Below are positions 10,991 to 61,085 of a stretch of DNA of 64,000 nucleotides, piece after piece. This DNA comes from Squalus acanthias. Lineage: Eukaryota. The stretch covers positions 122,512,001 through 122,576,000 of the forward strand of contig CM059434.1 of assembly GCA_030390025.1 (NCBI GenBank), written 5' to 3'. The position numbers and the translations under genes were made by a program. The notes below the pieces were generated by a model. It did no database searches. It had not been told where the DNA came from and was given only the letters and a program-made list of their open reading frames with translations. How positions within the stretch are numbered: position 1 is the stretch's first letter; the number at the start of each line of letters is the position of its first letter.

Positions 10991-11177
10991 AAGCAAAATA
11001 CTGCAGATGCTGGAAATCTGAAATAAAAACAGAAAATGCTGGAAATACTCAGCAGGTCAGGCAGCATCTGTGGAGAGAGAAACAGAGTTAACGTTTCAGG
11101 TCGATGACCATTCACCAGTTCTCTCTCCACAGATGCTGCCTGACCTGCTGAGTATTTCCAGCATTTTCTGTTTTTAT
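10991..11177. mobile_element. Penelope-derived foldback element (family 1) with degenerate hammerhead core in the loop
   Basis: Perfect 59-bp arms 11023-11081 and 11119-11177; minus-strand loop CTGGTGA-AT-GGTC-ATC-GACC-T-GAAA-CGTT. The Penelope assignment is from recall of the family. Confidence 0.75.
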
Positions 11178-11197
11178 GTCATTTGTTTCATTACAAT

Positions 11198-38589: not shown

Positions 38590-38756
38590 ATGCTGGAATT
38601 CTGAAGTAAAAACAGAAAATGCTGGAAATACAGAGCAGGTTGATGAACATCTGAAAGAGCAGTCAATGTGTGACCCTTCAGAGCTGGGAAAGGGTCACCC
38701 CCATAATGTTAACCTTATCTTTCTGTTTCAGATGCTAATCAACCTGTTATGGATTT
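38590..38756. mobile_element. Older copy of Penelope-derived foldback family 1
   Basis: AAAACAGAAAATGCTGGAAATAC head shared with 11023; arms CAGGTTGAT/ATCAACCTG, CATCTGAAA/TTTCAGATG, GTGACCCTT/AAGGGTCAC. Confidence 0.7.
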
Positions 38757-59706: not shown

Positions 59707-59954
59707 TTGGGTAAAGTGTGCCAAACAGGCTACAGAGCTGTCTATTGAAACAGACTTCAAAGATATCAATGCCCTCCATCTCAGAAATCTGTCTCAAGCT
59801 GTTCATCCATTTCCAGGACAAAGCAGGGCTGCGTATTTGATAAACAGAGCTCCCCGTTGAGACACACATCGTAGCTGGTGACCCTTCTAAGTATCAGTGG
59901 ATTTTCAGCGTTTTGTCCTAACCATCTAAAATTAATGCAATGCTTGATATTCAT

Positions 59955-60160
59955 AGATGAGAAGTCGCACAACACCAGGTTATAGTCCAACAGTTTTATT
60001 TGAAATCACGAGCTTTCGGAGCGCTGCTCCTTCGTCAGGTAAAGTCAGGAGCAGCGCTCCGAAAACTCGTGATTTCAAATAAAACTGTTGGACTATAACC
60101 TGGTGTTGTGCGACTTCTCATTTTTGTCCACCCCAGTCCAACACCGGCATCTCCGCATCA
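59955..60160. mobile_element. Penelope-derived foldback element (family 2)
   Basis: 75-bp arms 59957-60031 and 60047-60121, 1 mismatch, 15-nt loop; flanked by TGATATTC at 59945-59952 and 60161-60168 (possible TSD). Confidence 0.8.
60005..60043 (-). ncRNA. Minimal type I hammerhead ribozyme core (Penelope-type), predicted
   Basis: Minus strand UUAC-CUGACGA-A-GGAGC-AGC-GCUCC-GAAA-GCUC-GUGA: both conserved boxes, 5-bp stem II, palindromic AGCU in place of stem III, 4-bp stem I (one G-U). Confidence 0.65.
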
Positions 60161-60169
60161 TGATATTCC

Positions 60170-61085
60170 TGTGCCAGTTCTTTGGCAGAGCTATCCAATT
60201 AATCCCACTTCCCTGCTCTTTCCCCACAGCCCTGTAAATGTTTTCCCTTCAAGTATGTATCCAATTCTCTTTTGAATGTTACTATTGAATCCGCTTCCGC
60301 TACCCTTTAAGGCAGCGCATTCCAGATCATCACAACTCGCTGTGTTTTTAAAAAAAAGTTTCTTCACGTCGTCTCTGGTTCTTTTGTCAAATCGCCTTAA
60401 ATCTGTGCACTCTGGTTACCGACCCTTCTGCCACTGGAAACAGTTTCTCCTTATTTACTCTATTAAAACCGTTCATGATTTTGAACACCTCTATCAAATT
60501 CCCTCTTAACCTTCTCTTCATAACTGAAGATCCTCATACCTGGTACTATTCTAGTAAATCTCTTCTGTACCCTGTCCAAGGCCTTGACATTGTTCCTAAA
60601 GTCTGGTGCCCAGAACTGAACACAATACTCCAGCTGAGGCCTAACCAGTGTTTTATAAAGGTTTAGCATAACTTCCTTGCTTTTGTACTCTATTCCTCTC
60701 TTAATAAAACCAAGGATCCCATATACTTTTTTAACAGCCTTCTCAACTTGTCCTGCCATCTTCAAAGACTTGTGTACATACACCCCCCGGTCTCTCTCTT
60801 CCTGCACCTCCTTTAAAATTGTACCATTTAGTTCATATTGCTGCTCCTCATTCTTCCTATCAAAATGCATCACTTCACACTTAACCTGCATTAAATTTCA
60901 TCTGCCATGTGTCTGCCCATTTCACCGGCCTGTCTATGCCCTCCTGAAGTCTGTTACTATCCTCCTCATTGTTTACTACATTTCCCAGTTTCTTATTGTC
61001 TGCAAACTTTGAAATCATGCCCTGTATACCCAAGTCCAGGTCATTAATATATATCAAAAAGAGCAGTGGTCCTAATACTGACCCA
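60170..61085 (-). mobile_element. CR1 LINE RT-to-3' end fragment
   Basis: GSVLGPLLFLIYINDLD...KFADNKKLG...WADTWQMKFN (60881-61096); LYKTLVRPQLEYCVQFWAP (60463-60891). Confidence 0.95.

Follow-up and report, generated by a model that had tools for sequence, protein, structure and literature searches.

The short foldback at positions 59945-60168 of the window, the whole 64,000-nucleotide stretch of DNA analysed here, raises the question of whether a hammerhead ribozyme buried against its own antisense arm marks a class of mobile hairpins or is carried along in the remains of a larger element. The hairpin is composed of two head-to-head pLTR copies of a Penelope-type retrotransposon, and both a minus-strand hammerhead and an 8-bp target duplication are present in it. 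The foldback spans about 220 bases. Its arms (59957-60031 and 60047-60121, 75 bp) differ by a single mismatch (60013/60065) and enclose a loop of 15 nt, and are thus near-perfect, as described in the initial annotation. Positions along the parent leader are numbered from +1, the initiator-like A at window position 60045, which places the TATA-like box at -30, the hammerhead core at +8, the cut at +36/+37, AAUAAA at +46 and the ATG at +128. The following features are present.

59945..59952, plus strand: left target-site duplication TGATATTC, letters read directly
59953..59956, no strand: four bases between the left duplication and the arm, taken from the window sequence
59957..60045, minus strand: tail-less pLTR arm, +89 to +1 of the parent leader, with an intact hammerhead inside
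59995..60000, minus strand: AAUAAA of the left arm (+46 to +51), a candidate poly(A)-like signal
60009..60017, minus strand: GAA, palindromic AGCU (stem III) and C17; predicted cut between 60010 and 60009, laid out as in the available text of PMC4209133
60018..60030, minus strand: hammerhead stem II, GGAGC-AGC-GCUCC
60032..60038, minus strand: hammerhead core CUGACGA, within the hairpin loop
60045, minus strand: +1, an initiator-like A and putative transcription start, from motifs and the pile-up of ends
60046, plus strand: extra C, absent from the parent template and likely a copied 5' cap
60047..60162, plus strand: tail-bearing pLTR arm, +15 to +130, without the 5' strand of stem I and the core
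60078-60083, plus strand: second AAUAAA, in the plus arm
60122..60162, plus strand: Penelope 'tail', terminating in the ATG of the parent ORF (60160-60162)
60161..60168, plus strand: right target-site duplication TGATATTC, overlapping the end of the tail

At the junction of this copy the template is followed to +1, then comes the C, and then the partner arm from +15. The plus arm is about 40 nt longer than its mirror, which makes the unit asymmetric, and it carries one G-to-A change at 60065. The box of the hammerhead core is indeed absent from the mirror arm, as noted earlier, because that arm is truncated at +15; the change to GAAAACUC, which had been noted alongside, is the sole mismatch between the arms. 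The presence of TGATATTC on both sides bears out the earlier suggestion that the hairpin was inserted as one unit. With 59953-59956 added, the left duplication would be 12 bp long, the mode of the family, and the right copy may subsequently have lost bases. The right flank (60169-60897) consists of what is left of a dispersed repeat on the minus strand and includes an RT-end-like frame at 60463-60897, which we take to be LINE-like. This repeat reaches only as far as the target duplication, which a subsequent deletion may therefore have made shorter.

The minus strand contains a minimal type I hammerhead that reads as had been claimed, composed of CUGACGA (60038-60032), a bulged A, stem II GGAGC/GCUCC with G10.1-C11.1, GAA, the palindromic AGCU of stem III, C17 at 60010 and a short stem I of 4 bp (UUAC/GUGA). 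It was the sole hammerhead-like core found by a motif scan of both strands of the 64 kb. An Rfam search returned no hammerhead match at E<=5, and gave only sub-threshold matches of microRNA type at other hairpins. In 331 matches comprising 87 variants, which stem from overlapping loci and are not independent, stem II was paired in 98-100% and stem I in 92-98%, and one compensatory change, C-G to U-A, was present in stem II among the 87 variants. Exact matches to the hammerhead variant of the query number 930 in a genome motif count. The hairpin has a predicted stability of -151.8 kcal/mol, and in the folded whole minus-strand transcript the predicted unpaired probability is <=0.004 over GAAAGCUC, in agreement with the earlier view that the ribozyme is folded away. 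In the predicted fold of a dimer, the stem II halves are paired with each other instead of stem III. Cleavage as a dimer was reportedly described by Lunse et al. in 2017, as cited in PMC6765202.

The number of intact cores varies among copies, so the one-core asymmetry of the query is an accident of that copy: among 69 short copies, both cores are intact in 38, only that of the tail-less arm in 13, only that of the tail arm in 10 and neither in 8. Burial of the ribozyme in the hairpin is probably a by-product, with nothing pointing to design.

The parent element was identified in the genome of the same species. A DNA search of this genome (3.7 Gb) gave 1,239 candidates, of which 40 were scored, all of them near full-length, and the flank was different in every one of 30 fetched copies. 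The upstream part of longer copies comprises the end of an ORF whose C terminus bears the motif VVY...WYIG...R, which we take to be a GIY-YIG-like endonuclease motif; GIY-YIG was not named by Pfam on the parent ORF. Two loci (L280 and L281) hold the whole parent, consisting of a TATA-like box, the hammerhead, the tail, the ATG, an ORF of 892 aa and a second pLTR, and the ORF is flanked on both sides by the series TATA-hammerhead-tail that defines a pLTR. This layout identifies the 40-nt overhang of the query as the Penelope 'tail', ending in the start codon of the parent. The single ORF of L280 matches Pfam RVT_1 above the cut-off (E 1.3e-8). The Penelope origin that had been assigned to the foldback is supported by parent copies with an RT ORF and pLTRs. 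The parent is presumably of Poseidon type, a label based on domain order.

Several further arrangements of the parent were observed. Four parent ORF starts are spaced about 3,138 bp apart in G000:C2:211213576-211223018, which suggests a head-to-tail array. A long-ORF copy (L282, G000:C3483) of 879 codons from stop to stop has a 5' pLTR that starts at G|+1, is without a TATA box and adjoins an inverted arm. In L284 (G000:C1:193304700-193312700), several pLTRs and foldbacks are clustered on either side of a single ORF, which suggests that new copies were inserted, more than once, into the pLTR of the element or next to it. No remnant of a Penelope ORF was found within the 64-kb window.

Short copies of this kind are abundant. 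The tail arm has 16,554 exact matches with the tail variant of the query and 3,153 with the other tail motif (tail plus start codon). A census of 239 loci, assembled from several searches and with many loci picked for a tail, yielded 161 head-to-head pairs by script, a few of which may be counted twice. The tail was present on exactly one arm in 157 of these 161 insertions and in 51 of the 53 that were not picked by tail. A duplication of at least 8 bp was found in 143 of the 161 head-to-head insertions versus 5 of 803 shuffled pairs, so that insertion as one unit extends to the family. The duplications are mostly 12-13 bp long (chance overlap included) and 71% AT. The end of the short arm is at +88 in 63 of 161 insertions, and that of the long arm is mostly at +127 to +134. 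Insertions of 200-250 bp account for 95 of 161 in this set, which is enriched for short copies, and copy sizes are continuous from 110 bp to more than 1 kb. A junction-independent sample was drawn from contig C1, where 90 and 30 places from two 100-place tail listings gave 118 distinct insertions; these tail-anchored insertions comprise 69 foldbacks of at most 300 bp, 16 longer inversions and 33 without an inverted arm within 1.45 kb. The stumps number in the thousands, and the element itself is ordinary debris of a known Penelope kind.

The inner ends of the arms are far from evenly placed. In 54 directly joined insertions, 24 of the 108 inner ends lie at +1 and 72 between +1 and +13, the remainder being split evenly between positions upstream of +1 (18) and downstream of +13 (18). 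The peak has the width of a single base (24 ends at +1, 8 at +2 and 0 at -1) and falls on the initiator-like A, which lies 30 nt after the TATA-like box in long copies. The 18 ends upstream of +1 need a longer template and count against a model based on a capped leader. The Penelope of D. virilis has an internal, TATA-less promoter according to the available text of PMC2377424, which counts against a TATA-driven start at +1. Among the RNA contigs compared, which carry no information on start or strand and so do not bear on expression of this copy, none covers the unique left flank of the query.

Arms that leave the template right after +1 gave 3,726 pattern matches genome-wide. In the first 100 on the list, C came next in 64, A in 21 and T in 15 (read by eye; the first 30 were checked by script, with C in 21), and 7 of the 21 arms with A are long copies of one subfamily variant. 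A bias of this base toward C is expected from a copied 5' cap; capped full-length L1 insertions are marked by an extra G (PMC11702581, available text). The extra C is carried by the tail arm in 14 of 30 and by the tail-less arm in 7 of 30, and by both arms in L129 and L152. In a control taken one base earlier (+2), itself skewed by a 4-nt microhomology, 17 of 100 arms had C as the following base and 20 had a partner arm whose first base was +1. Many of the C's after +1 could belong to the C-rich partner arm as its first base, and at junctions without such an explanation the excess is weaker (C 23 versus A or T 14, by eye). No cap-base or strong-stop reading of Penelope was found in the open-access literature searched.

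The behaviour of longer copies and of a second family was also recorded. None of 15 long-ORF copies (at least 500 nt) with a locatable hammerhead starts at +1, upstream sequence being kept; this count omits several loci where the hammerhead could not be placed by script. No excess of a leftover extra C, such as strand transfer would be expected to bring into long arms, was found in arms continuing upstream (4 C versus 6 T in 10 matches). In the second Penelope family, 8 of 18 arms start near its own +1, again an initiator-like A; of these 8, a single one follows a G. In five loci (L010, L020, L189, L196 and L206) AGGT is repeated after +1 and the extra C, as if the end of the cDNA had primed a second round of copying at the hammerhead core of its template.

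Templates cut by the ribozyme were considered as another source of ends. Ends at the predicted cut site gave 515 matches and ends one base from it 356, with true breaks in 64 and 45, respectively, of 100 sampled by eye, corresponding to an estimated 330 or so true breaks versus about 160. Although this is an excess of about twofold, a third of the sampled breaks at the cut site (23 of 64) lie on a TCAC microhomology, and no clear signature of ribozyme-cut templates was left. Ends at +1 are about ten times commoner than ends at the cut site.

We consider it probable, at roughly 0.7, that the foldback is a very short, promoter-less Penelope stump, in which two pLTR copies were primed from two nicks on a short capped mRNA leader. 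As judged from the motifs, transcription would start at +1, 30 nt after the TATA-like box and 7 nt before the hammerhead core. The protein of the element would nick both DNA strands with a stagger of about 12 bp, and reverse transcription would have two start points within the RNA, at about +88 to +99 and +127 to +134. With one such internal start per strand, the tail would be placed on a single arm. Each cDNA would run off at the capped 5' end, often adding a C opposite the cap, and the two cDNA ends would then be joined, mostly via 1-4 nt of microhomology and with some trimming. In the query, the left cDNA would have reached +1 plus the C and the right cDNA would have been trimmed to +15. 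The ribozyme would be carried along because it is located in the leader. The TATA-like box (-30) lies outside both arms, so the stump, having no promoter of its own such as a non-autonomous element would possess, would not be transcribed by itself. AAUAAA lies ahead of the tail, so in a polyadenylated mRNA the 5' leader would be the only place where the tail occurs. Read-through RNA, or else a transfer to the 3' pLTR, would then be required for long arms, and the transfer is speculative.

The close similarity of the two arms bears on a different origin, in which one cDNA or antisense-transcript copy folds on an end palindrome and is copied back into the inverted arm. For head-to-head pLTRs, palindromes at the inverted junctions were proposed to allow self-priming on an antisense template (PMC3846280, available text), and junctions forming perfect palindromes occur in L009 and L178. 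The arms differ by 1.3% (82 of 6,272 positions), with subfamily variants mostly common to both, and discordance at +36 was observed in 4 of 108 instead of the 51 expected if the arms were independent, which also fits a single template. Against this, the arms are unlike at two or more subfamily sites in ten loci (e.g., L049, L059 and L108) and at the loop variant in 20 of 77 pairs. The arm reaching further upstream is sometimes the one and sometimes the other (L032 and L044 versus L040 and L137), the extra base is found on one arm, on the other or on both, and an antisense template should not stop at a sense initiator; self-priming is therefore considered unlikely. The sharpness of the pile-up tells similarly on the idea that long read-through copies were randomly truncated at their 5' ends, with the pile-up caused by stalling of the RT at stem II and by local microhomologies and with no RNA 5' end involved. 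This idea would accommodate the continuum of sizes to more than 1 kb, the recurrence of microhomology junctions (GAAG, TCA and TGA) and the upstream sequence retained by long-ORF copies. The peak, however, is one base wide. Its position 15 nt beyond stem II coincides with an initiator-like motif at a typical spacing from a TATA-like box, and the extra base that comes after it is biased, all of which makes random truncation distinctly improbable.

The initial annotation had proposed a family of non-autonomous hairpins, transcribed and re-inserted as a unit, with the ribozyme silenced by its antisense arm and dsRNA yielded. The accumulation of insertions at 200-250 bp, the separate target duplication of each copy, the recurrence of the junction of the query in 7 loci and the very stable predicted fold would agree with it, and pLTRs can mobilise other sequence in trans according to the available text of PMC3846280. 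Those 7 loci, however, were picked by likeness to the query and comprise 3 subfamily haplotypes, so the same junction was probably formed more than once, and 29 of the 35 other junction classes tallied were seen once. Furthermore, the arms follow the subfamilies and not a master hairpin, the one-core asymmetry is not conserved (38 of 69 keep both cores) and the TATA box is missing from the stump. A master hairpin with a fixed junction was ruled out by the diversity of junctions, the three haplotypes at the shared junction and the variable pattern of cores. Breakpoints thus differ between copies, the very outcome named beforehand as speaking against the class, and a family of this kind can hardly be credited.

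The proposed class had also included two other hairpins of the window, which belong to another family and have no blastn match to the element at 59945-60168. The foldback at 10991-11181 derives from the second Penelope family, whose ORF in long copies is about 30% identical to the protein of the first family and for which 13,795 exact matches to one 34-nt motif were counted; its core reads CUGGUGA. The hairpin at 38590-38756 is an older, diverged relative of that foldback (92% over 51 nt). No target duplication of more than 6 bp was found at either of the two. An inverted repeat at 1565-1875, with 115-nt arms that are 91% complementary and 81 nt apart, gave sub-threshold matches to microRNA families and probably represents two opposed copies of a dispersed repeat.

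The reading of the stump as two pLTR copies primed from two nicks can be extended to an obligate twin priming, in which a protein dimer would make one cDNA per nicked strand, giving two 'strong-stop' cDNAs from the capped leader. Their joining would yield hairpins, and their transfer to the repeated 3' pLTR would, as for LTR elements, yield long arms as well as tandems that carry a promoter. This extension is tentative, and we give it somewhat less than an even chance. Both strands are cut and extended by a purified Penelope-like protein, a predicted dimer that uses two internal RT starts bounding the tail and does not need cleavage by the ribozyme (PMC11167929). In the same study the steps after priming were called unvalidated, and the origin of tandem and inverted ends and of the one-sided tail of Penelope-like elements was called undefined in the available text of PMC8557442. 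The young stumps, thousands in number, may provide a base-level record of Penelope insertion. They predict transcription from +1, a C copied from the cap, RT initiation close to +88 and +130, nicks staggered by about 12 bp and two cDNAs made independently, and these predictions favour twin priming over the published idea of self-priming. If obligate twin priming is true, the start site, both RT starts and the nick stagger of any family could be read from its genomic copies without other data. In such genomes, the proper annotation for a short hammerhead hairpin is that of a Penelope stump, and not that of a ribozyme switch or microRNA precursor.

The layout of an inverted pLTR with a one-sided tail and a duplication is already published, and the pile-up at +1 with an extra base is the less ordinary part. 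In the available text of PMC3846280 and PMC8557442, EN+ Penelope-like insertions have the same head-to-head inverted, 5'-truncated pLTR, with a one-sided tail of 30-40 nt and a duplication of 8-13 bp, and their pLTRs have the same TATA and TCACT initiator-like motifs, hammerhead and partial tandems. Unlike the insertions described there, most copies in the present genome are without the body and consist only of two pLTR stumps. In those accounts the inverted arms are explained by self-priming, and the concentration of inner ends at the initiator with an extra base, observed in the present genome, is not mentioned in the available text. PAc, the Poseidon of Anolis carolinensis, shares the two internal RT starts bounding the tail, the AT-rich targets and the use of both strands, and a hammerhead is likewise located just upstream, with no sign of cleaved RNA as the main template (PMC11167929). 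The ATG of PAc is located at stem II, with the RT starts 111-118 nt into the ORF, whereas here the ATG is at the end of the tail (+128); joined two-arm products and a cap base are not described in the main text of that paper.

The ribozyme, known here from its sequence, resembles the minimal hammerheads of metazoan Penelope elements (PMC4209133 and PMC6765202, available text) in being of type I with a short stem I, a bulged base before stem II, G10.1-C11.1 and a palindromic stem III, and differs from them in its stem II of 5 bp. Minimal hammerheads that occur as pairs, one on each strand and separated by 100-700 bp, were already noted in the available text of PMC4209133. Non-LTR retrozymes, as presented in the available text of bioRxiv 10.64898/2026.07.22.740005, are also short, non-coding, hammerhead-bearing and Penelope-derived. 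They consist of head-to-tail tandem units with a hammerhead in each, in contrast to the head-to-head pair with one core and a target duplication found in the query, and identity with a retrozyme was rejected for this reason. The twin priming of L1 (PMC11702581, available text) shares priming from both target ends, a preserved duplication, a microhomology junction and an extra base that marks the RNA 5' end. The two cDNAs of L1 cover different parts of the RNA, whereas those of the Penelope stump would both cover the same leader, so that the product is a hairpin.
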